Positions 9,058-38,178 of a stretch of 64,000 bases of DNA are shown here, piece by piece; within the stretch, counting starts at the first letter, position 1; each line of letters opens with the position of its first letter. The stretch spans positions 7,783 through 71,782 of the forward strand of contig JAIORP010000100.1 of assembly GCA_021108075.1 (NCBI GenBank), given 5' to 3'. The notes beneath the pieces were generated by a model, which had not been told where the DNA came from, searched no databases, and saw only the letters and a list, made by a program, of their open reading frames with translations. Made by a program: the position numbers and the translations under genes. This DNA is from Candidatus Omnitrophota bacterium (lineage in GTDB: Bacteria > Omnitrophota > Gorgyraeia > Zapsychrales > Zapsychraceae).

Positions 9058-9161
9058 ATACCAATTCCATCAAATAATGACCAAAACCAATTCTGCTTTT
9101 CTCGACGATTTAGCGAGAATATCAGAATTAAGATAGAACAATTTATTAATGGATTTGGTAT
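9058..9161 (+). mobile_element. MITE-like intergenic repeat, copy A (104 bp, ~20-bp terminal inverted repeats, central hairpin)
   Basis: ATACCAATTCCATCAAATAA ... TTTATTAATGGATTTGGTAT ends. About 95% identical to copies at 15592-15695 (opposite orientation) and 20393-20496. Internal TTCTCG-acgatttag-CGAGAA hairpin. Confidence 0.8.
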
Positions 9162-9196
9162 AAGTATTATTTTTATACAATTAACTACCTGAACAT

Positions 9197-9673
9197 ATGG
9201 ACGATAAAAGAATAAATAGCCGTTATCATGCGGCGTACCCATTGGATTTTTCGTACGACGTGAGAACAAAGATTAAGATCCAAATAAAGGAAGATCAGGG
9301 AGCTCTTCAGAAGAAGCATGCGGCTTTTTCTCAGAATATAAGTACAGATGGGCTGTGTTTCGTTTCTAAGTATAAACTTCACAAGGGCGATGCCTTGCAC
9401 CTGGAGTTGTTTTTGCCTGGAAGTGACAAGGCTATTGGGATGGAAGGCGAAGTCCGGTGGTCGAAGACGGTGCTTGATGATAAGATTCACAAGAGTAAAT
9501 ATAATACTGGCGTTAAACTGTTAAGTGTCGATGGTCAGTCTGTTCCTGACACAGTTTGTTTTGATTCCACCTATCATGTTGCCTGGAGTATTGTTCTAGA
9601 ACGTGTATTTAATACCTACAAATTTATTCTAAAAAAGAATAAAGACGATTGTACTCCTCTTGAAGATTTCTAA
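9197..9673 (+). CDS. PilZ-domain protein (putative c-di-GMP receptor)
   Basis: RINSR (RxxxR) and QNISTDGLCF (D/NxSxxG) PilZ signature motifs. 158 aa. Confidence 0.7.
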   Translation: MDDKRINSRYHAAYPLDFSYDVRTKIKIQIKEDQGALQKKHAAFSQNISTDGLCFVSKYKLHKGDALHLELFLPGSDKAIGMEGEVRWSKTVLDDKIHKSKYNTGVKLLSVDGQSVPDTVCFDSTYHVAWSIVLERVFNTYKFILKKNKDDCTPLEDF

Positions 9674-9813
9674 AAAATTTTATCCGCTATTCAATTAAAT
9701 TGATGCCAGTGCCTTTTAAACGTATCGTTCGTCAAAGAAAATGTTTAAAATCAAAATATTGATATTACTGGATATGTGATCGTTTAGACATAAAAAAAAC
9801 ACTGCATTATTGC

Positions 9814-9842
9814 TTGACATGCGATAAACAGAATAATATTAT
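9814..9842 (+). promoter_or_regulatory. Candidate sigma70 promoter (TTGACA-17-TATTAT) upstream of glgP
   Basis: TTGACA at 9814-9819, 17-nt spacer, TATTAT at 9837-9842. AAGGAG RBS before the ATG at 9903. Confidence 0.45.
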
Positions 9843-9902
9843 TGTGTTGGTCTTGCAGTAAAAAATTTTTATTTTTATTGTACAATTTGATCAAGGAGTT
9901 TT

Positions 9903-12401
9903 ATGAAATCATTGAACAAAAAAAAGAAAGCTAAAACAGAAAACGATTTTGATTGGGTCAATGTTCATAAGGATATGAGTAAGGAAGGCTTGAAGCTGTC
10001 TTTTTTCGCGGACCGGCAATATAGTCTTGCGAAAGATCAGTATACTTCAACAGCGTATGATAATTATATGGCTTTAGCCATAACTGTCAGGAATCGTATT
10101 GTTGAACGGTGGATCCATACCCAGCAAAGTTATCATAAAAAGAATGTGAAGCGAGTTTACTATTTGTCAATGGAGTTTTTAATCGGTCGTTTGTTAGGAA
10201 ACTACATATATAATCTGGGGATTGAGAAGGAATTGCAGGCGGCCTTTGATGAATTGGGCTTTGACTTGGACTTGTTGCGTGAACAAGAGGTGGATGCTGC
10301 ATTAGGGAATGGGGGGTTAGGGCGGTTAGCCGCCTGTTTTTTAGATTCAATGGCGACTTTAGACATCCCGGCCCATGGTTATGGTATCCGTTATGAGTAT
10401 GGTATTTTTAATCAAAAGATTAAAAATGGTTTTCAGATTGAGCTTCCGGATGAATGGTTGCGTTGGGGAACTCCGTGGGAATTCCCTCGACCAGAATACA
10501 GGCAAAGAATCCGTTTTTATGGGCATATTGAACAGCGTCCGGATGAGAAAGGCCGCATGAAAAGTTGTTGGGTCAAGACAGATGATGTCTTAGCTGTTCC
10601 TTATGATATGCCGATTGTCGGATATAAAAATGATGTGGTCAACACCTTGAGATTGTGGTCAGCCAGAAGCAGTGATGATTTTGATCTGGACTATTTTAAC
10701 CATGGGGATTATGAGCGTGCTGTTTATTCAAAGATTTTATCGGAAAACATTTCAAAGGTTTTGTATCCGAACGATGCCATGAGCACCGGTCGAGAACTGC
10801 GTCTTCGGCAGGAATATTTTTTCACTGCGGCATCCATCGCAGATATTATCCGCCGGTTTAAGGTTGAGAATGATGACTTGAAAGATTTACCCGGCAAGTT
10901 AACAATTCAATTAAATGATACTCATCCGGCCCTCAGCATTGTCGAACTGATGCGGGTTTTGGTTGATGACGAAAAGTTTGAGTGGGAGACGGCCTGGGAC
11001 GTCGTCCGGCGGACCTTTGCCTATACCAATCACACATTGATGCCGGAGGCTTTAGAGCGATGGTCTGTCGATTTGCTTGAAAAAGTTCTGCCGCGTCATC
11101 TGCAGTTGATCTATGAAATTAATTCCCATTTCATAAAAGAAATTCGCGCGCGATTTCCAGACGACGAAGAAAAAATCCGCAATATGTCTTTGGTGGAGGA
11201 GAGTTGGCCGAAACAAATTCGTATGGCACAGCTTTCCATCGTCGGGAGCCGTTCGGTCAATGGTGTGTCGGCGTTGCATTCAGACCTGCTGAAACGGTGG
11301 ATGTTTCGTGATTTTTACACGATGTATCCAGAAAAATTTAATAACAAAACGAACGGGATTACACAGCGTCGATGGTTGCTTAAGGCAAATCCAAGATTAT
11401 CTTCTTTGATAACTGAAGCGATTGGAGACAAGTGGGTCATCGACTTAGACAAAATAAAGAAGATCCTCCCACTCAGCAAAGAAGCATCATTTGTAGAACA
11501 ATGGCAAAAAATAAAGGGGCAGAACAAGCAGGATCTGGCAACGTACATCAAGAGGACAATGGATATCCAGGTCGACCCTGAATCGATGTTTGATGTGCAG
11601 GTTAAGAGAATTCATGAATACAAACGACAGCTGTTATTCAGCTTTTATATTATTTCTCAGTATATGCTGTTAAAGAATGATCCTAAAAGTTTTAAGCAGC
11701 CACGCACTTTTATCGTCGGTGGTAAAGCCGCTCCGGGATATACCATGGCTAAGCTGATCATTAAGTTCGTCAATGCTATTGGGGACATCGTTAACAACGA
11801 TGCGCAAGTGTCTAAGAAGATGAAAGTGATTTTCCTGGAAAATTATCGTGTTTCATTGGCTGAAAAAATATTCCCAGCGAGCGAGTTGTCCGAGCAGATA
11901 TCGACGGCTGGCACAGAAGCGTCAGGAACAGGGAATATGAAATTTATGATCAATGGGGCATTAACGATCGGGACAATGGATGGGGCAAATGTTGAAATGT
12001 CACAATGTTTGGATAATAAAGACATTTTTATTTTTGGTCTAAAAGATAAAGAGGTTGAAGACTTAAAAAAACAAGGCTACCATCCGATGGATTATGTGAA
12101 TCAATCCCCCGTGCTTCAAGAGATTCATCATTTGTTGACGAGTCAGTTTTTTTGCCCGCAAGCTGCAGGGTTGTTTGATCCCATTATTAATACGATCTTT
12201 TATTCTGACCCGTTCTTGGTCTGCGCAGACTTTGATGCTTATTATAAAATGCAAGGTCAAGTTTCTGAGACATACACAGACAAATTATTATGGACACAGA
12301 AATCGATCAATAATGTCGCTAATACGGGATTCTTCTCTAGCGATAGGACGATCAGAGAATATGCTGATGATATTTGGCATGTGCGGTATAGAAAAGTTTA
12401 A
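9903..12401 (+). CDS. glgP: Glycogen/alpha-glucan phosphorylase
   Basis: EFLIGRLLGN and LGNGGLGRLAACFLDS motifs. PLP-lysine region IVGGKAAPGYTMAK. 832 aa. Confidence 0.95.
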   Translation: MKSLNKKKKAKTENDFDWVNVHKDMSKEGLKLSFFADRQYSLAKDQYTSTAYDNYMALAITVRNRIVERWIHTQQSYHKKNVKRVYYLSMEFLIGRLLGNYIYNLGIEKELQAAFDELGFDLDLLREQEVDAALGNGGLGRLAACFLDSMATLDIPAHGYGIRYEYGIFNQKIKNGFQIELPDEWLRWGTPWEFPRPEYRQRIRFYGHIEQRPDEKGRMKSCWVKTDDVLAVPYDMPIVGYKNDVVNTLRLWSARSSDDFDLDYFNHGDYERAVYSKILSENISKVLYPNDAMSTGRELRLRQEYFFTAASIADIIRRFKVENDDLKDLPGKLTIQLNDTHPALSIVELMRVLVDDEKFEWETAWDVVRRTFAYTNHTLMPEALERWSVDLLEKVLPRHLQLIYEINSHFIKEIRARFPDDEEKIRNMSLVEESWPKQIRMAQLSIVGSRSVNGVSALHSDLLKRWMFRDFYTMYPEKFNNKTNGITQRRWLLKANPRLSSLITEAIGDKWVIDLDKIKKILPLSKEASFVEQWQKIKGQNKQDLATYIKRTMDIQVDPESMFDVQVKRIHEYKRQLLFSFYIISQYMLLKNDPKSFKQPRTFIVGGKAAPGYTMAKLIIKFVNAIGDIVNNDAQVSKKMKVIFLENYRVSLAEKIFPASELSEQISTAGTEASGTGNMKFMINGALTIGTMDGANVEMSQCLDNKDIFIFGLKDKEVEDLKKQGYHPMDYVNQSPVLQEIHHLLTSQFFCPQAAGLFDPIINTIFYSDPFLVCADFDAYYKMQGQVSETYTDKLLWTQKSINNVANTGFFSSDRTIREYADDIWHVRYRKV

Positions 12402-12433
12402 ATCGTAATTTTTTTTATAAAAAGGAGGGTGAA

Positions 12434-12766
12434 GTGAGAACTAATGAAAGAAAAGAATTATTGAATCTTCCGGAAGTTGTGGAAGAGATTAAGCGGCATC
12501 TTTGGATAGAGAGTGAAAAAGCCGGTTATGATATTGGCTTTGATAGCGCGGCTGATGACTGGTTTAACAAATATTCTCAGGACTGGATGCGGTATCACTT
12601 GCCGGGGGAAAAGGCAGATGGTCCTAAGAACGGTAAATCTAAAGCTGATCCCGTAAAAGGAAAGAACGGGAAGGCGACTGCTGTGAAAACAACGGAAAAG
12701 AAAACAACTGCAAAGAAGTCTGCTGCAGCATCCAAAAGAAGAAGAGCTAAGAGTTATAGAAGTTAG
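12434..12766 (+). CDS. Hypothetical protein with lysine-rich histone-H1-like C-terminal tail
   Basis: 110-aa ORF with GTG start and a GGAGGGTG RBS. C-terminal KNGKSKADPVKGKNGK...KKTTAKKSAAASKRRRAK. Confidence 0.45.
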   Translation: MRTNERKELLNLPEVVEEIKRHLWIESEKAGYDIGFDSAADDWFNKYSQDWMRYHLPGEKADGPKNGKSKADPVKGKNGKATAVKTTEKKTTAKKSAAASKRRRAKSYRS

Positions 12767-12947
12767 TATTGCGTTTCTTTTGTCTTCGTGTCTTTTGTTA
12801 GAAAGGTCGAATTGTTTTGTGGATATATCAGGCAAAATAAGACGGCCTTTTTGGTTTTTCCCCTGATTTAGAAGAAAATAAAGGTTCTCATTGCGGTGTC
12901 AGGGTCATAGCTATATAATACGTCATATTAAAAAAGAGGAAAGGCGG

Positions 12948-13448
12948 ATGTCTGAAAATGAACAGCGAATCGCACAAATAAGAAGTTTATTTAATGACAT
13001 CACTCTGAGGGCCATTATGGTCTCTCCGGTGATCACGATTAACGTCGATGCTAACTTAAGCGAAGCGTTGGAGAGTTTTATCGCTTATAACATCACCCAT
13101 TTGATTGTTGTTGACAGTCAAATAAAATTAAAGGGCATTATAACCCAGAAATATATTTATAAAACTTGTTCTCCTCGGAAAATTATGGGAGATATTTCTG
13201 GATATGACCCTGACCTGTTGTTGGATGGTGACAGCGTATACAGCAAGCAAACCTTAGATAATTTTATTCTGCGTCACATGATGAAGAAAAATCCTTTCGT
13301 CTTAACTCCAGATGATTCAATCGCGTCAGCCGTATGCTATATGGCAAAAAATAATATTGCCTGCATCCCCTTAGTTAACGATAAAGAAGCGGTTTGCGGG
13401 ATTATTACGAATCAAGAAATTGTGAATTTTATTTCACAATTTGTTTGA
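12948..13448 (+). CDS. CBS-domain pair protein
   Basis: Two CBS-like segments (IMVSPVITINVDANLSEAL...HLIVVD; FVLTPDDSIASAVCYM...ACIPLVN). Start at ATG 12948 with AGAGGAAAGG RBS rather than TTG 12891. Confidence 0.65.
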   Translation: MSENEQRIAQIRSLFNDITLRAIMVSPVITINVDANLSEALESFIAYNITHLIVVDSQIKLKGIITQKYIYKTCSPRKIMGDISGYDPDLLLDGDSVYSKQTLDNFILRHMMKKNPFVLTPDDSIASAVCYMAKNNIACIPLVNDKEAVCGIITNQEIVNFISQFV

Positions 13449-13512
13449 TCCGGCTTAGATGATTCGCGTGGACCCGGTCAATGTCATGAATATTGAAATA
13501 ATATACTCTTGA

Positions 13513-13541
13513 TTGACTTACATATTAGCCTTTTTTATAAT
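13513..13541 (+). promoter_or_regulatory. Consensus sigma70 promoter (TTGACT-17-TATAAT) upstream of cheW/che operon
   Basis: TTGACT at 13513-13518, 17-nt spacer, TATAAT at 13536-13541, about 43 nt upstream of the cheW ATG. Confidence 0.5.
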
Positions 13542-13583
13542 TATATTGTTGAATTTGTCCAACTAATTCCATGGAGGCAGAAA

Positions 13584-14099
13584 ATGAATGATATTGAAAT
13601 GAACGGATTAGATTTCCATGAGGATAATGATGTTCTTCAATTGGTTTGTTTCAAGCTGGCCGAAGAAGAGTATGCTATCGATATCAATTTGATTCGGGAA
13701 GTCATTTTGGTTCCTAAAATTACGCCTGTTCCTCAAATGCCTGCTTTTTGTTTAGGCGTCATCAATAATCGTGGAAGTGTTATCCCCGTCTTTGATTTAA
13801 GAAGAAAATTTTATCTTCAGGAAAAAGAATTTGATGGAAATACCCGGATTTTGGTTGCCTACATTGATCATCAGATCATTAGCATGGTCGTGGATGAAGT
13901 CCTGGATAATATTAAATTCGAATCCACGCTTATTGACCCAGCGCCGAGTGTGAAAATGAAAATAGAACGTGAGTATATTCAGGGTCTTGGTGAAGTTGAG
14001 AATCGAATGATTATTATTTTGGATTTAGCGAAGATGCATGAATTTATAAAACAAGAAATCGGGATAGGCCAAGGCTTTGCTCAGCAAGAGGCGATATAA
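13584..14099 (+). CDS. cheW: Chemotaxis coupling protein CheW
   Basis: Single CheW-like domain (LQLVCFKLAEEEYAIDINLIREV...VINNRGSVIPVFDLRRKF). GGAGG RBS 6 nt before the ATG at 13584. Confidence 0.85.
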   Translation: MNDIEMNGLDFHEDNDVLQLVCFKLAEEEYAIDINLIREVILVPKITPVPQMPAFCLGVINNRGSVIPVFDLRRKFYLQEKEFDGNTRILVAYIDHQIISMVVDEVLDNIKFESTLIDPAPSVKMKIEREYIQGLGEVENRMIIILDLAKMHEFIKQEIGIGQGFAQQEAI

Positions 14100-14126
14100 C
14101 CATTTAAGGGGGAGGGTAAAAGACAC

Positions 14127-15065
14127 GTGACACAAATAAATGATGAAAATAAAAAAGGCATACTGTTGGAGTCCGGAACGAATGAGCTTGAAGTTGTTGA
14201 GTTTTGTGTTGATGATTCTTACTATGCGATAAATATTGCTAAAGTTTGTGAAATTATTAAAGCGGACATAGAAATTGTTTCGGTCCCTGACACACATCAA
14301 TCAATTGATGGTGCGATCAATATCCGCGGTAAAATTATACCCGTTATCAACTTAGGGCGTTATCTAAAGAACGCTCCCATTGAAGACAAAAAGGAAAGCC
14401 GTATTATTGTTTCAGAATTCAATAAGATGACCGTTGGTTTTTGGGTGACTTCCGTTGCCCGCATTCACCGGCTATCTTGGAAACAAGTGGAGCCTCCATC
14501 AGAAATGCTGCAGACGGACCAAGGATATGCTGTCGGTGTTATTCGTATTAATGATAAAGTTCTTTTCTTATTAGATTTCGAGAAGATTGCCGCGCATATC
14601 AATCCGCGCTCATCCATGGATGCGGAAGACCGTTTAAAAAATATTTCCGATACAGATAAACATATCCGCTCATCAAAAGTTATTTTGATCGCGGAAGATT
14701 CCGACTTTATACGGACCATGCTTGATAAAGTGCTTAGAGATGCCGGGTATAAGACGATGACAGCGATGAATGGCAGCGAAGTTTGGGAATATCTCACGGT
14801 CGCACTGAATGACTCGGGTTTTACTAAAATAGAGGACATATACAGCTTGCTTATTACGGACATCGAAATGCCCCAGGTGGACGGATTGCATCTGATCAAG
14901 AGGATAAAGGGAAATCCAAAATTGCGTGAATTGCCTTGTATAGCGTTCTCTTCGATGATTTCGGAGAAACTCAGGTTGAAGTGTAAAAGTGTTGGTTCTG
15001 ATGGCGAGATTGCTAAACCAGAAATTGAAAAGTTAGTGGAACTAGTTGATAAACTCTCTCTGTGA
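14127..15065 (+). CDS. cheV: CheV (CheW-like domain fused to response-regulator receiver)
   Basis: N-terminal CheW-like domain (LEVVEFCVDDSYYAINIAKV...IRGKIIPVINL) plus C-terminal REC domain (KVILIAEDSDFIR...ITDIEMPQVDGLHL). GTG start with GGAGGG RBS. Confidence 0.8.
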   Translation: MTQINDENKKGILLESGTNELEVVEFCVDDSYYAINIAKVCEIIKADIEIVSVPDTHQSIDGAINIRGKIIPVINLGRYLKNAPIEDKKESRIIVSEFNKMTVGFWVTSVARIHRLSWKQVEPPSEMLQTDQGYAVGVIRINDKVLFLLDFEKIAAHINPRSSMDAEDRLKNISDTDKHIRSSKVILIAEDSDFIRTMLDKVLRDAGYKTMTAMNGSEVWEYLTVALNDSGFTKIEDIYSLLITDIEMPQVDGLHLIKRIKGNPKLRELPCIAFSSMISEKLRLKCKSVGSDGEIAKPEIEKLVELVDKLSL

Positions 15066-15099
15066 TTTAAACACGCGCACGACAAAAAGGGAGGTATGA

Positions 15100-15528
15100 G
15101 TGAAAACGATGGCTACCAAAACTTTTTCTCCTGAAAGAAGAAAATATATCCGTATTCCTTCTCAGAATATTTTGTATTTAAAAAAATTTTCAGTTCGTGA
15201 CTTAACGGTTGATAAACGGATAGAACGTAAGATTGAGGCTATTACTAAGAATTTAAGTGTGGGGGGAGTTCTTTTTGACAGCGATATCAAATACAGTCTG
15301 GGTTCCCTTTTGAAGATCGAATTAAACCTTCCTGGTTGGGAGAAATTTAAGAATGAATTTTATCGTTTTGACAAGACCTCCCGATCTGAACCGTTAATTG
15401 TTTTAGCAAATGTGGTAAGGCTGGAGGTTATTATTCCTGAAAAGTCTTATGAAATTGGTGTTTGTTTTTCTGCGATCGATACAGGTCATAGGTGGGCTCT
15501 GATGAAATATATTAACTCAAAAAAATAG
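15100..15528 (+). CDS. PilZ-domain protein (second copy, embedded in che locus)
   Basis: ERRKYIR (RxxxR) and NLSVGGVLFD (NxSxGG) motifs. 142 aa. GGGAGG RBS, GTG start. Confidence 0.7.
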   Translation: MKTMATKTFSPERRKYIRIPSQNILYLKKFSVRDLTVDKRIERKIEAITKNLSVGGVLFDSDIKYSLGSLLKIELNLPGWEKFKNEFYRFDKTSRSEPLIVLANVVRLEVIIPEKSYEIGVCFSAIDTGHRWALMKYINSKK

Positions 15529-15591
15529 TTGGTTCGTCTGTTCGAGAAATTAAGTTCGGTTTTTCGTTTATGTAATTTTTATTAATTCTTT

Positions 15592-15695
15592 ATACCAAAT
15601 CCATTAATAAATTGTTTTATCTTCATTCTGATATTCTCGCTAAATCGTCGAGAAAAGCAGAATTGGGTTTGGTCATTATTTAATGGAATTGGTAT
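15592..15695 (-). mobile_element. MITE-like intergenic repeat, copy B (reverse orientation)
   Basis: Reverse complement of copy A over the full 104 bp, with a few substitutions. Lies between the PilZ and MCP genes. Confidence 0.8.
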
Positions 15696-15758
15696 TAGTA
15701 TCCTTCCAACCCTAATTTTTTATACTTTTTTTACATTATCTTGAGGGACGAAATATTC

Positions 15759-18302: not shown

Positions 18303-18481
18303 AATTGACCTTAGAAAAATGGTCCTGTTTAAAGTCACATTTGTATGAGGGGGTTCAGGTTTGTTTTGGATGGAATCCTGTCATGGAAAGCGTCATTAAT
18401 TAATCCAGTTTGCGCTTTATTAGGTCTTGTTATTATGTTATAGTCCAAAATTAAGAAAACAAATAAAATGGATTGGAGACT

Positions 18482-19294: not shown

Positions 19295-19313
19295 ATGTTG
19301 CGAGGGAGTATTT

Positions 19314-20375: not shown

Positions 20376-20392
20376 TAGAAAGCAACTGATTG

Positions 20393-20496
20393 ATACCAAT
20401 TCCATTAAATAATGACCAAAACCAATTCTGTTTTTCTCGACGATTTAGCGAGAAAAGCAGAATTAAGATAGAACAATTTATTAATGGATTTGGTAT
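20393..20496 (+). mobile_element. MITE-like intergenic repeat, copy C
   Basis: Same 104-bp element as copy A, same orientation. Directly abuts the decayed cheY-like reading frame. Confidence 0.8.
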
Positions 20497-20514
20497 GATT
20501 TGATGGTTAAGACG

Positions 20515-20873: not shown

Positions 20874-20876
20874 TAA

Positions 20877-24340: not shown

Positions 24341-24342
24341 TT

Positions 24343-25353: not shown

Positions 25354-25356
25354 ATT

Positions 25357-26550: not shown

Positions 26551-26619
26551 TCTCCATTCCGCCTCACGAGTTTTCCGCTTTCCAGTTATAAATAATGGCC
26601 AACATAATGAGATAAAATA

Positions 26620-27468: not shown

Positions 27469-27485
27469 ACTGAACGGCAACTGGG

Positions 27486-28883: not shown

Positions 28884-28910
28884 TTTTTAAACTCATTTAT
28901 TTTATATCTC

Positions 28911-29435
28911 ATGATTGTATTTGAAGTTGTTCAAGGTGATATCACAAAGCTTAAGGTTGACGCCCTTGTTAATGCGGCAAACACTTCCCTGCTTGGTGGA
29001 GGAGGAGTGGATGGCGCCATCCACAGAGCCGCGGGATCAGAGCTTTTAGATGCCTGTCGAACATTAGGCGGTTGTTCGGTCGGCGACGCGAAGATCACAA
29101 ACGGTTTTCAACTGTCAGCCCGGCATGTGATACACACTGTCGGTCCCATTTGGAGGGGTGGCCAGCATAATGAAGAGGGCTTGTTAGCGAATTGTTATCG
29201 TCGTGCGATTGAGGTCGCAACACAAAACAAGTTGAAGACGATAGCGTTCCCCTGCGTCAGTACCGGAGTTTATCGGTTCCCGAAAGCTTTAGCCGCACAG
29301 ATTGCCGTTGACACCGTTTATGATATCGTTCAGCATCAAAATATGTTTATTGCAAAAGTTATCTTTGTGTGTTTTGATTTGGAAAATTTTATGATATATC
29401 AGAAATTATTATCTTCTCACAGGGAAAAGAGTTAA
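28911..29435 (+). CDS. Macro-domain protein (O-acetyl-ADP-ribose deacetylase, YmdB-like)
   Basis: DITKLKVDALVNAANTSLLGGGGVDGAIHRAAG and HVIHTVGPIW motifs. Confidence 0.85.
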   Translation: MIVFEVVQGDITKLKVDALVNAANTSLLGGGGVDGAIHRAAGSELLDACRTLGGCSVGDAKITNGFQLSARHVIHTVGPIWRGGQHNEEGLLANCYRRAIEVATQNKLKTIAFPCVSTGVYRFPKALAAQIAVDTVYDIVQHQNMFIAKVIFVCFDLENFMIYQKLLSSHREKS

Positions 29436-29439
29436 GGAT

Positions 29440-30141
29440 ATGGATTATTTTGAGCAGAAGGCGGATCCGATCCCTTTGAGAAATTTTTTTAAAGATTCTT
29501 TTGTTTTTTATCGTCGCAATATTTCGATTTTTTTGCCGCTGGGGTTTATTTATGGTTTCTCGCAAATGCTGGCTGACAATATATATTTTTCGGACGAGCA
29601 ATTCTTAGGTCTGCGACTTTTTATTCAGATTATTATCAATTGTATCGCGACAATCATTGTTATCTATACGACCTTCGCCTTGGGTCAGGGGTTGGCTGTG
29701 GGGATCAAAGAGTGGATGGCGATTGTCAGGCAGAAGCTGTTGTTGTTTACGGGCATTTCTTTGATCAGGATGTTTTTTGTCGGATTGGGATTTCTTGCCT
29801 TTTTTTTGCCGGGCTTGTATTTAAGCACCATTTTTTTGTTTGTTGAGGTTATCGTAATTTTTGAGTATACGGATGTTCAAAGTGTTTTTCAAAAGAGTGT
29901 GGTTTTGGTTCATCATGTTTTTCGAAAAGTTTTTTCTTTCTTGATGATTATTATTTCCTGCGGAGTTTTGTTTATTCTGCTATTCTCCAATCTTAATGAA
30001 CAGAGCCCATTACTGGGAAAGGTCTTAAGCGTTTCATTTTTTGTTTTTTCCCCCGTGTATATGCATATGGCTATTACACTTTTGTATTTGCGGATTAAGC
30101 AGATGAATGTTGTGGGTCAAAATAGTGAAACTTGTACATGA
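29440..30141 (+). CDS. Hypothetical polytopic membrane protein
   Basis: 233 aa with ~6 predicted TM helices. AAGGA RBS. No family recognised. Confidence 0.45.
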   Translation: MDYFEQKADPIPLRNFFKDSFVFYRRNISIFLPLGFIYGFSQMLADNIYFSDEQFLGLRLFIQIIINCIATIIVIYTTFALGQGLAVGIKEWMAIVRQKLLLFTGISLIRMFFVGLGFLAFFLPGLYLSTIFLFVEVIVIFEYTDVQSVFQKSVVLVHHVFRKVFSFLMIIISCGVLFILLFSNLNEQSPLLGKVLSVSFFVFSPVYMHMAITLLYLRIKQMNVVGQNSETCT

Positions 30142-30160
30142 AACTAAGAAGGAGGCGGAA

Positions 30161-30658
30161 ATGGATTGTCCTGTTTGTCAAAAAGCGATGTCGGAACAAG
30201 ATTTTGGCGGGATCAAAGTGGATGTTTGTGCTGATGGATGTAGAGGCATCTGGTTTGATTGGTTTGAACTAGAAAAGTTAGACGAAACGCATGAAGGTTT
30301 AGGCGAGGCCTTGAAGAATTCATTGGAAGGCACAAGGGAGCAAGACGAGTCCCGCGGGCAAATCAATTGTCCCCGTTGTCAAAAGCCGATGATTGGGCAT
30401 TTATACAAAGCCGCTAAAGATGTGACGGTTGATGAATGTTATTTGTGTGGGGGATTTTATCTGGACGCTGGAGAATTAAAGGCGATTCGTGATAGTTTCA
30501 TGAATGAATCTCAGCGTGAGCAGTTTGTGAAACAAATATTAGATCAAACGACAGAATATCAACAAGCCCAAGAGGATTTAAAGAAAATAAAAGCCCGTTC
30601 AGAAGCATTAAGCAGAATGACACGTGTCTTACGGGTATCGGATTACTTCACGAAGTAG
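30161..30658 (+). CDS. Tandem zinc-ribbon (TFIIB-type zf) domain protein
   Basis: Two CPxC...C(x2)GGxW/Y(x3)EL units (MDCPVCQ...VDVCADGCRGIWFDWFEL and INCPRCQ...VDECYLCGGFYLDAGEL). GGAGG RBS before ATG 30161. Confidence 0.5.
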   Translation: MDCPVCQKAMSEQDFGGIKVDVCADGCRGIWFDWFELEKLDETHEGLGEALKNSLEGTREQDESRGQINCPRCQKPMIGHLYKAAKDVTVDECYLCGGFYLDAGELKAIRDSFMNESQREQFVKQILDQTTEYQQAQEDLKKIKARSEALSRMTRVLRVSDYFTK

Positions 30659-30753
30659 AAAAGATCGTTGGCAAGATGAGGGTGCTTTTCCCAATCGGAA
30701 CAGTACCCTTTCTTTTTTCTGTCCATTCAGGGCCTATCGCGGGGATTCAAAAA

Positions 30754-32076
30754 ATGGTTGAAGATTTTTTTACAGTATCATCATTAAACAATTTGATAAA
30801 GGATGTCATTCAAGCCGGCTTTCCTCGAATGGTCTGGGTTTGTGGTGAGATTCAGCAATTCAATCGTAATCGAACAAAGCGGCATGTATTCTTTGAACTC
30901 GTCGAGAAAGATTCCGCTTCCCAGGACATCAAGGCGCGGATTGGTTTGGTTATTTTTGCAGGAAAAAAAGTCTACATCGAGAAGAAGTTTAAAGAAGTCG
31001 ATCAAGCGTTTAATCTTAAAGATGATATTGAAGTTAAATTCGCTTGTCGGGTTGATTTTTATGCGCCACATGGCGCTGTACGACTCATTGTTGAAGATAT
31101 CGATCCTGCGTATACTTTGGGGAAATTAGCTCAAGAAAAACAAAGATTGATTATCGTTTTAAAGAAACAAGGTGTTTTCGAGCAAAATAAAAAACGGGAA
31201 CTGCCGTTGGCACCGCTGAACATTGGTTTAATTACGGCGTATGACTCAGCCGCCTATAATGATTTTATATCCGAATTAGACCGTAGCGGATATAGTTTTA
31301 AGGTCAGAGTTCGCAATACCTTGATGCAGGGTAAGAATTCAGAAAAAGATGTTTGTCAGGCCCTGTGTGTGCTCGAGGGGATAAAAAATCTTGATTTGAT
31401 TGTGATTACCCGGGGTGGAGGATCTTTAGCTGAGTTAAGTTGTTTTGACAGTAAGCTTATCGCTCAAGCCATTGCTAAATCGCGTTTGCCTGTTTTTTCA
31501 GGAATCGGACATGAGATTAACTTAACCATTACCGATATGGCGGCCCATACGTACGCAAAAACTCCGACGGCTATCGCGCAGTTTTTGATAGAGAAAATTG
31601 ATCTTTTTCTTCAGAAAATGGATACTTATCAGAATGGTCTGCTGGAAAATATAAAGACAATGTTTCAAGGGCGGCGGGCGTCATTGCAGCAGGATGCCTG
31701 GCAATTATACAACCAGACGGGAGGGTATTTGAAAGAGCACAAGAATCGATTAATGTTTTTTGGAGAATGTGTGCGACACAAACCTTTAGCGCGTATGCAA
31801 CAGGGCTTACGCGATCTGCTTGTTAAGCGGCAGGCAATCCGCAAAGAAGTGAAACATTTTTTCTCGCAGAGTCATCATAAACTCCGTTCTTTTGAGAAAA
31901 TTGTTGATTTTGTCCATCCTCGCAATACGATTAAAAGAGGTTTTTGTGTTGTTCAAAATCAAAAAGGTGAGTATATTAAAAGTATTCAACAGCTCAAAGA
32001 AAATGAACGAGTGATCAACCGGTTTTTTGATGGATGCTCACACAATATTGTTGAAAAAATTGTGAAGGAGGATTAA
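30754..32076 (+). CDS. xseA: Exodeoxyribonuclease VII large subunit
   Basis: N-terminal OB-fold motif VWVCGEIQQF. RGGGSLAELSCFD and SGIGHEINLTITDMAAHTYAKTPTAIAQ motifs. Start uncertain (ATG 30754 chosen, track start 30676). Confidence 0.85.
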   Translation: MVEDFFTVSSLNNLIKDVIQAGFPRMVWVCGEIQQFNRNRTKRHVFFELVEKDSASQDIKARIGLVIFAGKKVYIEKKFKEVDQAFNLKDDIEVKFACRVDFYAPHGAVRLIVEDIDPAYTLGKLAQEKQRLIIVLKKQGVFEQNKKRELPLAPLNIGLITAYDSAAYNDFISELDRSGYSFKVRVRNTLMQGKNSEKDVCQALCVLEGIKNLDLIVITRGGGSLAELSCFDSKLIAQAIAKSRLPVFSGIGHEINLTITDMAAHTYAKTPTAIAQFLIEKIDLFLQKMDTYQNGLLENIKTMFQGRRASLQQDAWQLYNQTGGYLKEHKNRLMFFGECVRHKPLARMQQGLRDLLVKRQAIRKEVKHFFSQSHHKLRSFEKIVDFVHPRNTIKRGFCVVQNQKGEYIKSIQQLKENERVINRFFDGCSHNIVEKIVKED

Positions 32077-32289
32077 GTGCCTGAGTTTAAGTACAGCAAA
32101 GCAATGAAAAGGATTGAAGCGATCATTGAAAAAATTGAAAACGAAGAAATTGACGTTGATGATTTGTCGAATTATGTGAATGAAGCGGCGACCTTGATTA
32201 AGAGTTGCAAGGATAAGATCACAAAAGTGGAAAGCGAAGTCCAGAAAGTGGTCGATGACTTGGTCGAACCCGGAGACAATTCGAAATAA
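32077..32289 (+). CDS. xseB: Exodeoxyribonuclease VII small subunit
   Basis: 70-aa helical protein immediately after xseA (FEEAMKRLEEIVEKLE-like: SKAMKRIEAIIEKIENEEIDVDDL). GTG start. Confidence 0.8.
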   Translation: MPEFKYSKAMKRIEAIIEKIENEEIDVDDLSNYVNEAATLIKSCKDKITKVESEVQKVVDDLVEPGDNSK

Positions 32290-32416
32290 TTTTTTATTTG
32301 CAAAATATTATAAAACTGTTAGTTTGTTAGATGTTGTTTGATCGGTCAGCTCCGTGTTACTCGCATATAAGTTTACAGACATCTATCCCAAAATATCATT
32401 ATTTTTCATATGTTAC

Positions 32417-32490
32417 GCGCCTGTAGCTCAGCTGGATAGAGCACCTGCCTTCGGAGCAGGGTGTCGGGGGTTCGAATCCTCCCAGGCGCG
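32417..32490 (+). tRNA. tRNA-Arg (anticodon TCG)
   Basis: 74-nt cloverleaf. Acceptor GCGCCTG/CAGGCGC, D arm GCTC-AGCTGGATA-GAGC, anticodon stem CCTGC/GCAGG with loop CTTCGGA, T arm GGGGG-TTCGAAT-CCTCC. No encoded CCA. Followed by a T run. Confidence 0.85.
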
Positions 32491-32512
32491 TTTTTTATCA
32501 AATCGTATTAAT

Positions 32513-32686
32513 CCGGAAAATGCAATTGGGATCACCTGCGAAGGAAAAATTCATCGCAATTGCTACGTTATGCTCGGGATTATTTTGTTTACCGTATCTT
32601 GATGCGCTTCACGTAATAACCCTCGCAATGCCTTGCACTTGCAACAACGACTGCCTTTTCGTTACGATTCCAATTGCATTTTCCGG
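32513..32686. repeat. 17-bp perfect inverted repeat pair (CCGGAAAATGCAATTGG) flanking 140 nt, immediately 3' of tRNA-Arg
   Basis: IR1 at 32513-32529 and IR2 at 32670-32686 are exact reverse complements. Confidence 0.7.
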
Positions 32687-32999
32687 GTTAAACGCTTCTG
32701 TTTTAAATTTATCATGTCGATAACGTTTTGATTTCATGCTTTCATCCGATATTTTTCAGTTTTTTTATCCATTGTCCCGGCCTGTCGGCTCTGTAGTGAA
32801 CATGAAGAAGATGTGTTTTAGAATAGATTGTAACGGTTATGTGGTTCTTTCTTTATTAATTATCTTTACATTTATTATTGATTTTAATAAAATATGTCCA
32901 TCGTAACAGATTCATGATAGATAATGTCTAAGAGCCGTGAATGATATTCATAAATTTATTTTATACAAAAAGGCATGACAATAAAAAAGGATAAACAAA

Positions 33000-34112
33000 A
33001 TGTCCCGGGATGATACCACTACGATAAAGACCTTGTTAACATCACCGCTGGATAAACAACACCGGGCATTAAGCGCCCGGATGGTGTCATTCGGTGGATG
33101 GGAGATGCCTGTTCAGTATAAGGGTGTGCTGGCCGAGTACCGTCACACCCGCACCAAAGCGTCCATTTTTGATATATCCCATATGGGAGAGTTTAAAGTC
33201 CTTACGAATGATAAAGATAGAAGCTTAGAGAAAATTTTTACGATCAATTTATCCCGGATCCCTCTTATGAAATGTCGCTACGGAATGATTTTAAATGAGC
33301 AGGCTGGGATTATTGATGATCTTATTGTCTTTCGGTGCGCGCAGAATGAATGGTTTGTTGTCGTGAATGCCGCTACAATGGAGAAAGATGAAAAATATAT
33401 CGCATCCCATCTCCCTTCTGAATCTCAATTGACCAATTTGACATTTCAACTGGGAAAAATAGATTTACAGGGCCCTGAGGCGAGAACCGTGATGAAGGCC
33501 CTGGTCCCGGGTATTGAAAAATTAGCGTATTATTCATTTGATTTTTTTAATTTATTAGGGGAAAATGTTTTAATCAGCCGAACAGGTTACACCGGTGAGT
33601 TGGGATATGAGATTTATTATCCGTGGGAAAAGATCCATTTGGTCTGGGATGGATTGCTTGCAAACGAGTTGGTTGAACCGGCAGGTTTAGGCGCGCGTGA
33701 TATTTTACGTTTGGAAATGGGCTACAGTCTGTATGGGCATGAAATGAACGAAAGCATTTGTCCTTTTGAGGCGGGATTAGATCGATTTGTTGATTTGAGC
33801 AAAGATTTTATTGGCAGGGAGGCTTTATTAGCCAAAAAAGATATTATAAAGCGTAAATTAGTCGGTTTTGTTTCATCTTCGAGACGCTCACCCCGCGCGC
33901 GGCAACATATTTTTTCTATGGCCGAAGAAGAAATTGGAATAGTGACAAGTGGCACATTCTCACCCTTTCTTGAAAAGGGTATCGGTTTAGGTTTTCTTCC
34001 GAAAGATTATTTAGCGCAACATAAGGAAGTTTATTTTGGTGATCAGCGCGCAAAGACACCGGCCATTATTTCAAGTAGACTTTTTTATAATAAGGGATCT
34101 TTAAAAAATTAA
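33000..34112 (+). CDS. gcvT: Glycine cleavage system T protein (aminomethyltransferase)
   Basis: MVSFGGWEMPVQYKGVLAEYRHTRTKASIFDISHMGEF N-terminal signature. 370 aa. Confidence 0.9.
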   Translation: MSRDDTTTIKTLLTSPLDKQHRALSARMVSFGGWEMPVQYKGVLAEYRHTRTKASIFDISHMGEFKVLTNDKDRSLEKIFTINLSRIPLMKCRYGMILNEQAGIIDDLIVFRCAQNEWFVVVNAATMEKDEKYIASHLPSESQLTNLTFQLGKIDLQGPEARTVMKALVPGIEKLAYYSFDFFNLLGENVLISRTGYTGELGYEIYYPWEKIHLVWDGLLANELVEPAGLGARDILRLEMGYSLYGHEMNESICPFEAGLDRFVDLSKDFIGREALLAKKDIIKRKLVGFVSSSRRSPRARQHIFSMAEEEIGIVTSGTFSPFLEKGIGLGFLPKDYLAQHKEVYFGDQRAKTPAIISSRLFYNKGSLKN

Positions 34113-34123
34113 AGGAGCAAGTT

Positions 34124-34510
34124 ATGGAAATAATAGATTATTTTTTGTATTCAAAGGAGCATGAGTGGGTTTCTCTAGAAGATGGAATTGCGACTATAGG
34201 TATTTCTGAATATGCTCAGGCAGCATTAGGCGATATCACATTCATTGAACTTCCGAGCATTGATGATGAAATCGATCAATTTGAGCAGATCGCGTCCGTT
34301 GAATCCGTTAAAGCGGCCAGTGATATTTTTTCTCCGATGTCGGGTAAGATCGTGGACATCAATGGCAGTCTGGAAAATGACCCGGGACTTATTAATAAGT
34401 CTTGCTATGAGAAGGGTTGGATTATCAAGATTGAGATCTCTGAGAAAGACGAGAAGTCCAACCTTATGACCGCCGAGGAATATCGGAACTTTTTGAATAG
34501 TGTTAGATAA
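34124..34510 (+). CDS. gcvH: Glycine cleavage system H protein
   Basis: Lipoyl-lysine motif SVESVKAASD. 128 aa. AAAGGAG RBS. Confidence 0.9.
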   Translation: MEIIDYFLYSKEHEWVSLEDGIATIGISEYAQAALGDITFIELPSIDDEIDQFEQIASVESVKAASDIFSPMSGKIVDINGSLENDPGLINKSCYEKGWIIKIEISEKDEKSNLMTAEEYRNFLNSVR

Positions 34511-34540
34511 TAAATAAAATGCTTATAGAAAGAAGTTTTT

Positions 34541-35887
34541 TTGAAGCCATATATTGCTAATACAGTAAAAGACATAAAAGACATGTTGCAGGCGATCGGT
34601 GTTGCGACGATTGATGATCTGTTTAAAGATATTCAGCCACAGCAAAGGCCGTCTTCATTTAACCTTCCCGAAGGTCAATCAGAATTTGAGGTTATTCAGT
34701 TCTTTCGTGAGATTGCTGATCATAACAGGACACATTTGATCCCTTTTATCGGCGGAGGTTTTTATGACCATTATATTCCTGCGCCTGTTTTTTCCCTGAT
34801 CTCTAGAGGGGAGCTTTCCACGGCGTACACGCCATACCAGCCGGAATGTTCTCAAGGAACGCTACAGGCATTATACGAATACCAAAGTTTGATGTGTGCG
34901 TTAACGGGCATGGAAGTGTCGAATGCCTCATTGTATGACGGGGGTACGGCTTTGTATGAAGCGACAATGATGGCGCTGCGGATCACGAAAAGAAAAAAGG
35001 TTCTAATGGACGGGGGTGTTAGTCCCATATACCGTAAAATTATTCAGTCCTACACGAGAAACCTGAATTATGAATTTATTCAAACACCTGTTGTCCACGG
35101 GCATAGTGACCGGGATGCGATACAGAAATTAATAGACGAGGATACGGCTGCCATTATCCTGCAGAATCCAAATTTTTTTGGCACGATAGATGATCATTCG
35201 GATATTGTTAACATGGCGCATGCTAAAGGAGTTTTGGTCATACAGAGTGTTTATCCTATCGCGTTAGGATTAGTTAAGACGCCCGGAGAGATGGGTGTTG
35301 ATATCGTGACAGGTGAAGGGCAGAGCCTCGGACTTCCGTTGAATTTTGGAGGGCCGTATTTAGGTTTTATGACCACAAAGAAGAAATATGTCCGGAAAAT
35401 GCCTGGCAGGGTCGTGGGAAAGACGGTTGATCAAAGTGCCCGGAGGTGTTTTGTCAACACTTTACAAACGAGGGAGCAGCATATCCGTCGGGAGAAAGCG
35501 ACATCTAATATCTGCACAAACGTCGCATTGTGTGCGGTGCAGTCATCGATCTTTATGTCATTACTTGGCAAAGAGGGTTTGAAGCAATTGGCTCAATTAA
35601 ATTTAGATAAAGCGGAGTATTGCCGTCAATTGCTGGAAGGCATCAAGGGGGTTGAAGTGAAAAGGAGTTCGCCAACGTTTAATGAGTTTACAATTCGTTT
35701 GCCTTCAGACTCAAATAGAATATGTGAAGAGATGATTGAGGAGGGTTTTGCCCCCGGGATCCCTCTGGACCGATATTATCCTGATACGGCGAATTATATG
35801 CTTGTCGCTGTTACCGAAAAAAGAACGCGAACTGAAATTGAACAGTATGTTTCCTTGTTGAAACATATCATAGAGAAACAAAAATAA
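34541..35887 (+). CDS. gcvPA: Glycine dehydrogenase (decarboxylating) subunit 1
   Basis: N-terminal MLQAIGVATIDDLF and TAYTPYQPE(CS)QG motifs. TTG start at 34541, alternative ATG at 34583. Confidence 0.85.
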   Translation: MKPYIANTVKDIKDMLQAIGVATIDDLFKDIQPQQRPSSFNLPEGQSEFEVIQFFREIADHNRTHLIPFIGGGFYDHYIPAPVFSLISRGELSTAYTPYQPECSQGTLQALYEYQSLMCALTGMEVSNASLYDGGTALYEATMMALRITKRKKVLMDGGVSPIYRKIIQSYTRNLNYEFIQTPVVHGHSDRDAIQKLIDEDTAAIILQNPNFFGTIDDHSDIVNMAHAKGVLVIQSVYPIALGLVKTPGEMGVDIVTGEGQSLGLPLNFGGPYLGFMTTKKKYVRKMPGRVVGKTVDQSARRCFVNTLQTREQHIRREKATSNICTNVALCAVQSSIFMSLLGKEGLKQLAQLNLDKAEYCRQLLEGIKGVEVKRSSPTFNEFTIRLPSDSNRICEEMIEEGFAPGIPLDRYYPDTANYMLVAVTEKRTRTEIEQYVSLLKHIIEKQK

Positions 35888-35899
35888 TTTTTTATAGAT

Positions 35900-37366
35900 A
35901 TGGAATTAATATTTGAGAAAAGTGTGGCTGGTCGACGGGGGTATTTGTTGCCTAAAACAGATGTCCCTGTCTCCGCAAGTATTCCGGAGCAGTTTCAACG
36001 AAAGCGAGATTGTCCTTTCCCTGAAGTGACAGAATTAGATGTTGTCCGGCATTTTACGCGATTATCCCATCTTAACTATTCGGTTGATACGCATTTTTAT
36101 CCCCTTGGATCTTGTACGATGAAATATAATCCGAAATTTACCGAGCAGGTTGCGGCCATGCCTCAATTTTGTGAGGTGCATCCGATCCTGCCGCAGTTGA
36201 AGAATGGAGAACTGTTAACGCAAGGGGCATTATTTGTTCTCTATGAGATGGATAAATTGTTGTCCGAGATAACAGGTATGGACGCTTTTACAATGCAGCC
36301 CTTGGCTGGCGCGCATGGAGAGCTGACGGGTGTGATGATCATGGCCGCTTATCATAAGGCCCAAAAGAATAAAAAGAAATATATCATTGTTCCGGATGCT
36401 GCCCATGGAACGAATCCAGCGACAGCCGCTATCGCCGGGTATGAAACAATATCAGTAAAAAGCAATGCTACGGGAGTCATTGATATTGATCAATTAAAGC
36501 AATGTATCAATGATGACGTTGCTGGCCTTATGTTGACCTGCCCCAATACCCACGGCATTTTCAATATGGACATCGATAAGATCACAAAAATGGTTCATGA
36601 TGTTGACGGCCTCATGTATTATGACGGGGCCAACCTGAACGCCATATTGGGGCGCTGCCGTCCGGGAGATATCGGTTTTGATATCGTGCATGTTAATTTG
36701 CACAAGACGTTCGCAACGCCCCACGGCGGGGGTGGGCCAGGGTCCGGACCGGTTGGCGTGTGTGAAAAATTAGCGCCCTATTTACCTATTTCACGCATTT
36801 GCAAACGTGATAATGACACATATTTTTTGAATTATGATTATCCGCAATCCATTGGTTATATCGCGTCCTTTTATGGTAATTTTGGCATTGTGTTGCGGGC
36901 TTATGCTTATATTTTGCAGTTAGGCAAAGAAGGATTGATGGCGATTAGTGATCATTCCGTTCTCAACGCGAATTACCTCCGGGAGCAATTGAAAAAATAT
37001 TACCATTTACCATATGACCGTATTTGCATGCATGAATGTGTTTTTTCTGCGGTAGAACAAGCCCAGCGAGGTGTGCATGCTATTGATATCGCCAAGTTTT
37101 TAATTGATCATGACCTGCATCCCCCGACTGTTTATTTTCCTTTGACAGTTAAAGAAGCGTTGATGATCGAACCAACAGAGTCAGAATCAAAAGAGACATT
37201 AGACTTGTTTGTTGATAAAATGATCCAGGCGGACGAATTGAGCCGTTCAAATCCTGCAAGTTTTCATGACAGACCGAAAACAACATGTATCTCCCGGCCT
37301 GATGAGGTCAAAGCTGCCAGAGAAATAAATACAAATTATTTCGCCGAAGAAAAACCGGATGACTAA
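35900..37366 (+). CDS. gcvPB: Glycine dehydrogenase (decarboxylating) subunit 2
   Basis: PLP-lysine region HVNLHKTFATPHGGGGPG. 488 aa. Confidence 0.9.
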   Translation: MELIFEKSVAGRRGYLLPKTDVPVSASIPEQFQRKRDCPFPEVTELDVVRHFTRLSHLNYSVDTHFYPLGSCTMKYNPKFTEQVAAMPQFCEVHPILPQLKNGELLTQGALFVLYEMDKLLSEITGMDAFTMQPLAGAHGELTGVMIMAAYHKAQKNKKKYIIVPDAAHGTNPATAAIAGYETISVKSNATGVIDIDQLKQCINDDVAGLMLTCPNTHGIFNMDIDKITKMVHDVDGLMYYDGANLNAILGRCRPGDIGFDIVHVNLHKTFATPHGGGGPGSGPVGVCEKLAPYLPISRICKRDNDTYFLNYDYPQSIGYIASFYGNFGIVLRAYAYILQLGKEGLMAISDHSVLNANYLREQLKKYYHLPYDRICMHECVFSAVEQAQRGVHAIDIAKFLIDHDLHPPTVYFPLTVKEALMIEPTESESKETLDLFVDKMIQADELSRSNPASFHDRPKTTCISRPDEVKAAREINTNYFAEEKPDD

Positions 37367-37374
37367 ATTGATTC

Positions 37375-38091
37375 ATGGTTTTAAAAGATATTTCATTTGA
37401 TTTGCCAGAAGAAAACATACTTTATGATGAACTGCTTCTGCATTTGGCAGAAAAGGGCAAGCTGGGGAATACTTTGCGGTTTTGGGAATCATCAGCGGTA
37501 TTCGTTGTGCTTGGAAGAATTTCCTCTTTAGACGAAGATGTTAATCAGCAGGCTGTTCGGAAAGACCGCGTTTCCGTTGTAAGGCGTTGTTCCGGCGGCG
37601 GTACGGTCGTGCAGGGTAAGGGATGTTTGAATTATTCATTGATTTTGTGTAAGCAGGATTATCCGCAAGTTCAGGATATTCGGCGCTCCTATAATTTTAT
37701 TTTAAATAAGTTGGTCAGAGCCTTTCATAAGTTAAACGTAAACACTGTCTGGCATCCGATTTCTGATGTCGCGTGTGTTGGTAATAATAAAAAAGTTTCC
37801 GGTAACGCGCAAAAACGCGCACGAAATTTTATTCTTCATCATGGGACAATTTTATGTGACTTTGATTTGTCGATTGTGGCTAAATATTTAACCTTGCCGC
37901 AACAACAGCCAGAGTACCGCCAAAACCGATCGCATTTAGATTTTTTGGATAATATATATTTAGATCCCGCTGATATTAAAAAGGAACTTCGAGAATCGTT
38001 TTTTATAACAGAGCATTTAGTGACACCAACACACGTTGAAAGAGAAATGTTAAGTGAGTGGCTGAAGAATAAAAAAATAAGATTAATGTGA
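37375..38091 (+). CDS. Lipoate-protein ligase / octanoyltransferase family protein (BPL_LplA_LipB domain)
   Basis: RRCSGGGTVVQGKGCLNYSLIL and KVSGNAQKRARNFILHHGTIL motifs. Lies immediately downstream of the gcv operon. Confidence 0.75.
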   Translation: MVLKDISFDLPEENILYDELLLHLAEKGKLGNTLRFWESSAVFVVLGRISSLDEDVNQQAVRKDRVSVVRRCSGGGTVVQGKGCLNYSLILCKQDYPQVQDIRRSYNFILNKLVRAFHKLNVNTVWHPISDVACVGNNKKVSGNAQKRARNFILHHGTILCDFDLSIVAKYLTLPQQQPEYRQNRSHLDFLDNIYLDPADIKKELRESFFITEHLVTPTHVEREMLSEWLKNKKIRLM

Positions 38092-38096
38092 TAATG

Positions 38097-38178
38097 ATAC
38101 CAATTCCATTAAATAATGACCAAAGCCAATTCTGCTTTTCAGAATTAAGATAGAACCATTTATTAATGGATTTGGTAT
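38097..38178 (+). mobile_element. MITE-like intergenic repeat, copy D (82-bp deletion variant lacking the central hairpin)
   Basis: Both TIRs and flanks match copy A. The 22 nt TCGACGATTTAGCGAGAATATC are absent. The element supplies the GAGGTG RBS for the next gene. Confidence 0.75.

Follow-up and report, generated by a model that had tools for sequence, protein, structure and literature searches.

The 64-kb stretch of DNA analysed here (the window; 64,000 nucleotides of contig JAIORP010000100.1, from a Candidatus Omnitrophota bacterium) carries four copies of a short intergenic repeat, which is 102 bp long when complete, has no coding capacity and is close to palindromic. It is very probably a miniature inverted-repeat transposable element (MITE) that descends from an insertion sequence (IS) of the IS630 family (the IS630/Tc1/mariner group). 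The repeat exhibited every defining feature of a MITE that can be tested. It is short and non-coding, has terminal inverted repeats (TIRs) that it shares with an autonomous element, is flanked by target-site duplications (TSDs), and is dispersed in both orientations. A first-pass annotation of this DNA had proposed a non-autonomous, MITE-like element, and that proposal is borne out by the TIRs, the TSDs, the two orientations, the dispersal, the dozens of copies in a related genome and the termini shared with IS630 elements. The family is a new, previously undescribed member of a well-known kind of selfish DNA, and we found no description of MITEs in Omnitrophota in the literature searched.

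MITEs leave their mark on small genomes: assemblies break at them, rearrangements start from them, and the expression of operons can be altered by them. Knowing this family and its insertion footprint, the trinucleotide TNA, helps to annotate Omnitrophota metagenome-assembled genomes (MAGs) and explains contig breaks in them. The analysis also flags a clade of IS630 elements that make a 3-bp TNA duplication, contrary to the TA rule stated for the IS630/Tc1/mariner group as a whole, and the termini, which are common to several phyla, offer a means to trace any horizontal transfer of the transposase that goes with them. No new kind of system is revealed; the most noteworthy aspects of the element are the TNA footprint of the IS630 clade and the cross-phylum termini.

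Anatomy and insertion footprint of the four copies

The element proper runs from TACC to GGTA and is 102 bp long in three copies and 80 bp in the fourth. Copy w1 (+ strand, 9056..9163) consists of an element at 9059-9160 between TAA repeats at 9056-9058 and 9161-9163. Copy w2 (− strand, 15590..15697) has its element at 15593-15694, between repeats at 15590-15592 and 15695-15697 that read TTA on the + strand and TAA in the orientation of the element; it is the only copy that points against the surrounding genes and against the three other copies. Copy w3 (+ strand, 20391..20498) has its element at 20394-20495 between TGA repeats at 20391-20393 and 20496-20498. Copy w4 (+ strand, 38095..38180) is a deletion derivative, with an element at 38098-38177 between TGA repeats at 38095-38097 and 38178-38180; the 22 nt that it lacks are exactly the central stem-loop. 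The window thus holds three full-length copies and one with a 22-nt central deletion, in both orientations.

Run over the 64 kb with filters off, a covariance model made from 22 sequences of the family gave scores of 113.6 (w1), 109.4 (w2), 119.7 (w3) and 74.6 bits (w4). It detected no fifth or degenerate copy in the window, as the four copies scored 75-120 bits and the next match 17.8 bits (E = 0.6). A 25-nt left-end pattern, searched with ≤3 mismatches, matched exactly four sites in the window and none in 100 shuffles, while the right-end pattern returned the same four sites together with cross-matches to the left arms. Model and pattern searches agree on the four copies previously located. 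The earlier boundaries, however, lay one base outside the true ends, which gave a length of 104 rather than 102 bp.

Pairwise identity between the window copies was 94-96%, in line with the ~95% estimated before, and their GC content is 28-30%. Coding capacity is nil, the sole open reading frame (ORF) that spans the element being a 37-codon TTG frame. The TIRs (TACCAATTCCATYAAATAAT / ATTWATTAATGGAWTTGGTA) are complementary at 20/20 positions in many copies from a related MAG, CAZIRV01. The TIRs of ~20 bp reported for the window copies are present but imperfect, with a mismatch at position 7 and a 1-nt register shift near positions 15-18. The nested inverted repeats are present, as is the central stem-loop (except in w4), and every copy folds as single-stranded DNA into one long hairpin, as the first-pass annotation had predicted, at -15.7 to -22.2 kcal/mol (z = -4.6 to -8.1; 0/200 shuffles folded equally well). 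The best internal stem, of 16 contiguous pairs, is that of w3.

We then aligned the boundaries of the window copies with those of 19 copies from CAZIRV01, keeping 12 nt of flank. The aligned copies displayed the flank pattern T-X-A, TACC...GGTA, T-X-A, X being identical left and right. Identical 3-bp TNA direct repeats flank all four window copies (TAA, TTA on the + strand, TGA and TGA), and were found in 34 of the 52 distinct copies collected in all (window, MAGs and metagenome contigs); across these 52, the central base of the TSD agrees in 77%, compared to 34% expected from composition. The first-pass annotation had pointed to the flanks as the place to look for TA or other duplications; a duplication is indeed there, but it is TNA, of 3 bp, instead of TA. 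An alternative parsing, in which TA is duplicated around an element CCAAT...ATTGG, was rejected: every target would need to read T-X-A-TA-T-X-A with matching X, and it is excluded by the empty-site test below.

Autonomous IS630-family elements with the same termini

The terminal 15 nt of the MITE are TACCAATTCCATTAA. A scan for degenerate versions of the terminus, in one genome per species, yielded at least 88 loci in three classes of match, and in at least 10 loci of other taxa the 15-nt outer end was identical to the ends of IS630-family IS. Among the matches listed, termini at the ends of transposase genes came from Vibrio sp. HN007, another Vibrio, Psychromonas (four loci), Colwellia, Shewanella and a Melainabacteria MAG, and TNA preceded all 14 termini at IS630-type genes. 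As working labels for this type of partner we use TACCAATTCC-type transposase and TACCAATTCCATTAAAT-type ends.

A complete IS630-family element of 1090 bp lies at 988-2077 of a locus on chromosome 2 of Vibrio sp. HN007 (L002), between TGA/TGA duplications. Its ORFs carry HTH_32/HTH_33/HTH_29 and DDE_3 domains (Pfam), and its two ORF halves matched NCBIfam NF033545 (transpos_IS630) with 110.8 and 98.2 bits, against a cut-off of 100 set for the whole protein. The stretch 934-3116 of this locus contains a solo 54-nt left end, the complete copy, and a second, left-truncated copy fused directly to the right end of the first. In all relatives orfA and orfB of the transposase are in different frames, which suggests that the protein is made by programmed frameshifting. 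Two further loci (L035 and L077) hold degenerate IS copies, in which no clear partner was apparent as a second end.

More distant relatives, with TACCAATCGG/TACCAATCTGG ends and TTA/TTA flanks, occur on Enterobacter plasmid pN260-3, where the element is located in an integron, between aac(6')-Il and blaIMP-1, and on a plasmid of Photobacterium toruni; both are annotated by PGAP as 'IS630 family transposase'. We joined the flanks of the pN260-3 element via a single TTA into a 400-nt construct representing the empty site. It matched CP123377.1 with 100% identity over 400/400 nt, and six other plasmids with 99.8% identity, in one ungapped piece each time. As the empty site matches seven plasmids through a single TTA, this is a direct demonstration that the IS630 clade of the pN260-3 element duplicates 3 bp at TNA. 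A literature search on IS630 elements with TNA or 3-bp TSDs, or on the pN260-3 element, returned nothing relevant.

The MITE can thus be compared with its putative partners. Of the TACCAAT...-ended elements, those from marine bacteria (Vibrio sp. HN007, Psychromonas sp. PT13, Colwellia sp. TT2012) agree with it in the outer 15 nt and those on plasmids (pN260-3, Photobacterium toruni) in the outer 7 nt, and both sets have its 3-bp TNA TSD. In contrast to the MITE, the TACCAAT...-ended elements are 1.09-1.1 kb long, encode HTH and DDE_3 domains in two frameshifted ORFs, and belong to Gammaproteobacteria; internal to the TIR there is nothing in common.

A 3-bp TNA or TWA duplication is the textbook footprint of the IS1031 subgroup of IS5 and of PIF/Harbinger, and elements of that lineage share with our repeat both this TSD and the small TIR format. 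A Tourist-like MITE of IS5 or PIF-Harbinger descent is nevertheless very improbable. All transposase genes at the shared terminus among the matches listed were IS630-type (DDE_3, NF033545), with no IS5-type gene next to any of these termini, and the empty-site reconstruction shows that an IS630 clade itself makes the 3-bp TNA duplication.

Among known bacterial MITEs, the Correia elements (NEMIS) of Neisseria, RUP of Streptococcus pneumoniae and Nezha of cyanobacteria are derived from IS630 and have the canonical TA duplication. As generally described, they resemble the present family in being ~100-150 bp, non-coding, bounded by TIRs, intergenic, present in both orientations and able to form a long hairpin, with mobilisation presumed to occur in trans by an IS630/Tc1/mariner-type transposase. 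Unlike them, the present family, known here from sequence alone, has a 3-bp TNA TSD, a different terminus and a host in the phylum Omnitrophota. Among IS630-Tc1-mariner (ITm) elements, the Zator/TP36 branch makes 3-bp rather than TA duplications (Repbase), and TP36 is bacterial. By that description it is likewise an ITm lineage with a 3-bp TSD; the partners identified here score as ordinary transpos_IS630. Zator/TP36 has been placed with the IS630-Tc1-mariner group (PMC7386202).

We propose that an IS630-family transposase, supplied in trans, would bind the ~15-20-nt TIRs (TACCAATTCCATTAA...) through its N-terminal HTH domains, excise the element and insert it at a TNA trinucleotide, which would then be duplicated on both sides. 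The cut-and-paste chemistry is assumed by analogy with what is established for IS630/Tc1/mariner elements. That a transposase of this type mobilised the window copies is an inference, with no partner found in their lineage. None was found beside any copy; tblastn with the Vibrio transposase gave no IS630-type match in the window; and Pfam detected no transposase-type domain in 40 of the 42 long + strand ORFs of the window (all but those at 46622-48214 and 48218-49900). To this extent the window lacks a transposase, as previously stated. A protein search with the N-terminal ORF of the transposase retrieved 189 homologues, mostly orfA products of ~158 residues on contigs of ~1.1 kb, none of which could be tied to Omnitrophota.

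Several observations weigh against descent from an IS630 element. No autonomous partner turned up by tblastn with the Vibrio transposase, whether in the window, in the ~106 kb from the related MAG or across metagenome loci totalling 659 kb, and the best-matching autonomous elements have only the outer 15 nt in common with the MITE and come from other phyla. A perfect TSD is absent from 18 of the 52 copies, 8 of which have reverse-complementary flanks (TAA...TTA, TGA...TCA) that simple insertion does not predict; central-base mismatches of any other type occur in only 3 of the 52. The number of copies in the window's own genome is a count over the 64 kb seen, and exact-protein look-ups of three neighbouring genes revealed no presence/absence polymorphism of the MITE at w2, w3 or w4. 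Finally, the element lacks the canonical duplication of a TA dinucleotide, having 3-bp TNA in its place. The canonical TSD of IS630/Tc1/mariner elements is TA, with the TATA of Sailor as an exception, so ITm clades can depart from TA (PMC8533490). As the autonomous relatives also duplicate TNA, we regard this departure as a property of the IS clade and not as counter-evidence to IS630 kinship.

Relatives in other genomes, mobility and arm symmetry

Among the matches listed for genomes, the same MITE, full-length and at 74-88% identity, was present only in CAZIRV01 and as one copy in the Omnitrophota MAG OFTM38 (L041), which aligns over the whole element. CAZIRV01 is labelled 'uncultured Planctomycetales'. 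As one of its contigs is syntenic with the window at 32.4-38.0 kb, with 56-73% amino-acid identity, it is a relative of the window organism. Across the 15 fetched loci (113.7 kb), the covariance model placed the MITE at 29 distinct sites, of which 28 are in the ~106 kb from CAZIRV01 and one is in OFTM38; this density is biased upward because the loci were chosen for holding a match. The copies in CAZIRV01 occur in both orientations and form several subfamilies. In a metagenome scan with a family-specific 19-mer, full-length copies were found only in VAPK01 contigs, at 44 places and again with 74-88% identity. No metagenome match reached ≥95%, and the window's own organism is therefore absent from that collection.

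On one CAZIRV01 contig (L083; CAZIRV010000020.1), two copies lie head to tail at 1157-1256 and 1261-1363, and at 1443-1636 a TACC-type MITE has another palindromic repeat (GGCTCAAAAATAACCTCGACAACTATAG...) nested inside it. A copy on this contig is 14 nt upstream of a tRNA-Arg gene and has no counterpart in the window; the syntenic spacers have diverged too far to yield a base-precise empty site there. In positions 1-8000 of the contig, which are syntenic with 32418-38000 of the window, the spacers are full of several other repeat families, among them the palindrome GGCTCAAAAATAACCTCGACAACTATAG... and, at 3835-3995 and 7440-7545, REP-like pairs that are rich in GC. The window spacers are only 9-13 bp where those of L083 hold repeats.

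The terminus is more widespread than the MITE. Unrelated small TIR elements of 81-183 bp differ in their interiors but share the 16-24-nt termini, and most have TNA flanks; among the matches listed, these came from Bdellovibrionota MAGs, Alteromonadaceae MAGs, Thalassomonas, Colwellia and Psychromonas. A scan of viral contigs with a 20-nt terminus returned 10 loci with no convincing inverted pair or TSD, which we discarded as chance matches. A full-text literature search with the terminal 12-mers found only unrelated primer sequences.

Is the MITE still mobile? The active or recently active state suggested in the first-pass annotation is not shown by the data: the window copies have diverged by 4-6%, and at each of the three sites compared (w2, w3 and w4) the insertion is also present in contigs of five other assemblies, which match the window at ≥99.9% identity. 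The four copies could quite possibly be fossils, that is, immobile, decaying relics of an element that was mobile in an ancestor and has since lost its transposase. Their divergence and shared insertion state fit this picture, as do the 22-nt internal deletion in w4 and the lack of a transposase in the window or adjoining any copy, while the four TSDs, all still perfect, set only a loose upper bound on age. On the other hand, only 64 kb of the genome was seen, and the tandem and nested copies and several subfamilies in CAZIRV01 indicate repeated bursts. Moreover, as the strains compared are >99.9% identical, even an active element would be expected to show no polymorphism. Two Logan contigs from the window's own strain break off within the MITE, 22-27 nt into it, as would be expected of a repeat: one stops at window position 20420 (L090) and the other at 38119 (L202). 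Of an ENA contig (L089), the initial 50 nt are unmatched in the window.

The two arms of the element tend to change together. In the 22-sequence alignment, 13 cells were changed on both arms, compared to 3.7 ± 1.7 in shuffles (0/500), and among 47 copies there were 17 symmetric-change cells against 5.4 ± 2.2 expected (0/2000). One-arm changes, of which there were 83, are far commoner. The symmetric changes sort into 2-3 subfamilies (A>C at position 5; positions 9 and 11), and thus represent few events. We considered four sources for them. Quasipalindrome template-switch correction, an established mechanism of replication error, would explain both the symmetric changes and the reverse-complementary flanks. 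Inversions between oppositely oriented copies may also give rise to the pattern in arms and flanks. Amplification from doubly mutated master copies and selection for the hairpin are the other two candidates for the symmetric changes. If correction does homogenise the arms, these MITEs would be a natural record of quasipalindrome template-switch mutation.

A near-invariant 15-20-nt terminus is common to independent MITE families of Omnitrophota and Bdellovibrionota and to autonomous copies in marine Gammaproteobacteria, which suggests recent spread of the transposase across phyla. Both Omnitrophota and Bdellovibrionota have been described as predatory or host-dependent. These strands can be joined in a single reading, in which an IS630 clade broke the TA rule, its transposase recently spread between phyla, possibly between predator and prey, and the arms and TSD centres were homogenised by quasipalindrome correction. 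We consider this combination unlikely.

Gene context and other features of the window

All four copies are between Pfam-supported, co-directional genes, so that their description as strictly intergenic stands. Copy w1 begins 25 nt past the stop of a gene for an HI0933-like flavoprotein (9031) and ends 34 nt ahead of the start of a PilZ gene (9197). Copy w2 is 62 nt past a PilZ gene stop (15528), with the start of a gene for a methyl-accepting chemotaxis protein (MCP) at 15741, and w3 is 16 nt past the cheB stop (20375), between the CheB and CheA genes. Copy w4 is 3 nt past the stop of a gene for a LipB-type ligase (38091); on the right, its TSD borders the GAGG/start region of an S41 peptidase gene. 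The copies occupy spacers of a chemotaxis cluster and of a glycine-cleavage/lipoylation cluster, and all long ORFs in 1-50 kb of the window are on the + strand. Four proteins encoded in the window are identical to the NCBI entries MCD4780378, MCD4780386, MCD4780401 and MCD4780402. None of 48 copies is inside a long stop-free frame, a count that is uninformative, as the element itself would interrupt any frame.

As they lie within co-directional gene strings, the window copies are probably transcribed, and their hairpins may incidentally affect the processing or stability of messenger RNA. This context, the strength of the hairpin (z to -8.1) and the excess of symmetric two-arm changes over permutation (13 against 3.7 and 17 against 5.4) would suit a functional structured RNA or DNA element under selection (a terminator, an mRNA stabiliser or processing site, or a small RNA), for which mobility is secondary. 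We consider such an element improbable. One of the four window copies is inverted with respect to the genes, and both orientations occur in CAZIRV01, where some copies are also truncated, nested or in tandem; w4 can dispense with the central stem-loop; and the one-arm changes greatly outnumber the symmetric ones, which trace to few events. Nor did searches for signals support it. Scans of the four copy regions returned no terminator-like site and no U-tract or T-run, promoter-like sites at the four copies were at chance level only, and Rfam 15 at gathering thresholds matched only a tRNA-Arg in the window, at 32417-32490, and nothing at the MITE. The terminator and small-RNA roles raised in the first-pass annotation thus found no support.

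The same annotation had also raised a REP/BIME-like structured repeat. Such repeats, spread by a RAYT (IS200/IS605-like) transposase, are palindromic, intergenic and multi-copy, as is this one. This origin is hardly tenable, since the element has TSDs and 15-20-nt transposase-type TIRs with termini identical to those of IS630-family elements, is 102 bp long compared to 20-40 bp, and is accompanied by no Y1/RAYT domain in the ORFs scanned (40 of the 42 long + strand ORFs).

The best-supported reading is that the MITE is selfish DNA tolerated in spacers. Copies would survive in places where they cause little damage, namely AT-rich spacers beside stop codons inside co-directional gene strings, and the TAA and TGA stop codons are themselves TNA targets. 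The long hairpin would then be a consequence of the palindromic architecture of a transposon and not a dedicated RNA function.

The window has three further features. A second, unrelated MITE-like element of 184 bp at 32508-32691 has 26-nt TIRs (TTAATCCGGAAAATGCAATTGGGATC / GATTCCAATTGCATTTTCCGGGTTAA) that are 92% complementary, and begins 17 nt downstream of the gene for tRNA-Arg(TCG) at 32416-32491; no copy of it was present in any fetched locus. Five consecutive + strand ORFs of 156-556 codons at 73-6369 had no Pfam match at E ≤ 1e-5. From ~51100 to 64000 on the + strand, and continuing past the end of the window, there are ~300 tandem 39-bp units (consensus GCGGGCATCAATTGGGAAGATATTGAAGTGATGAGTGAA, encoding AGINWEDIEVMSE) with a strong GC skew, which form part of a giant gene for a repeat protein.

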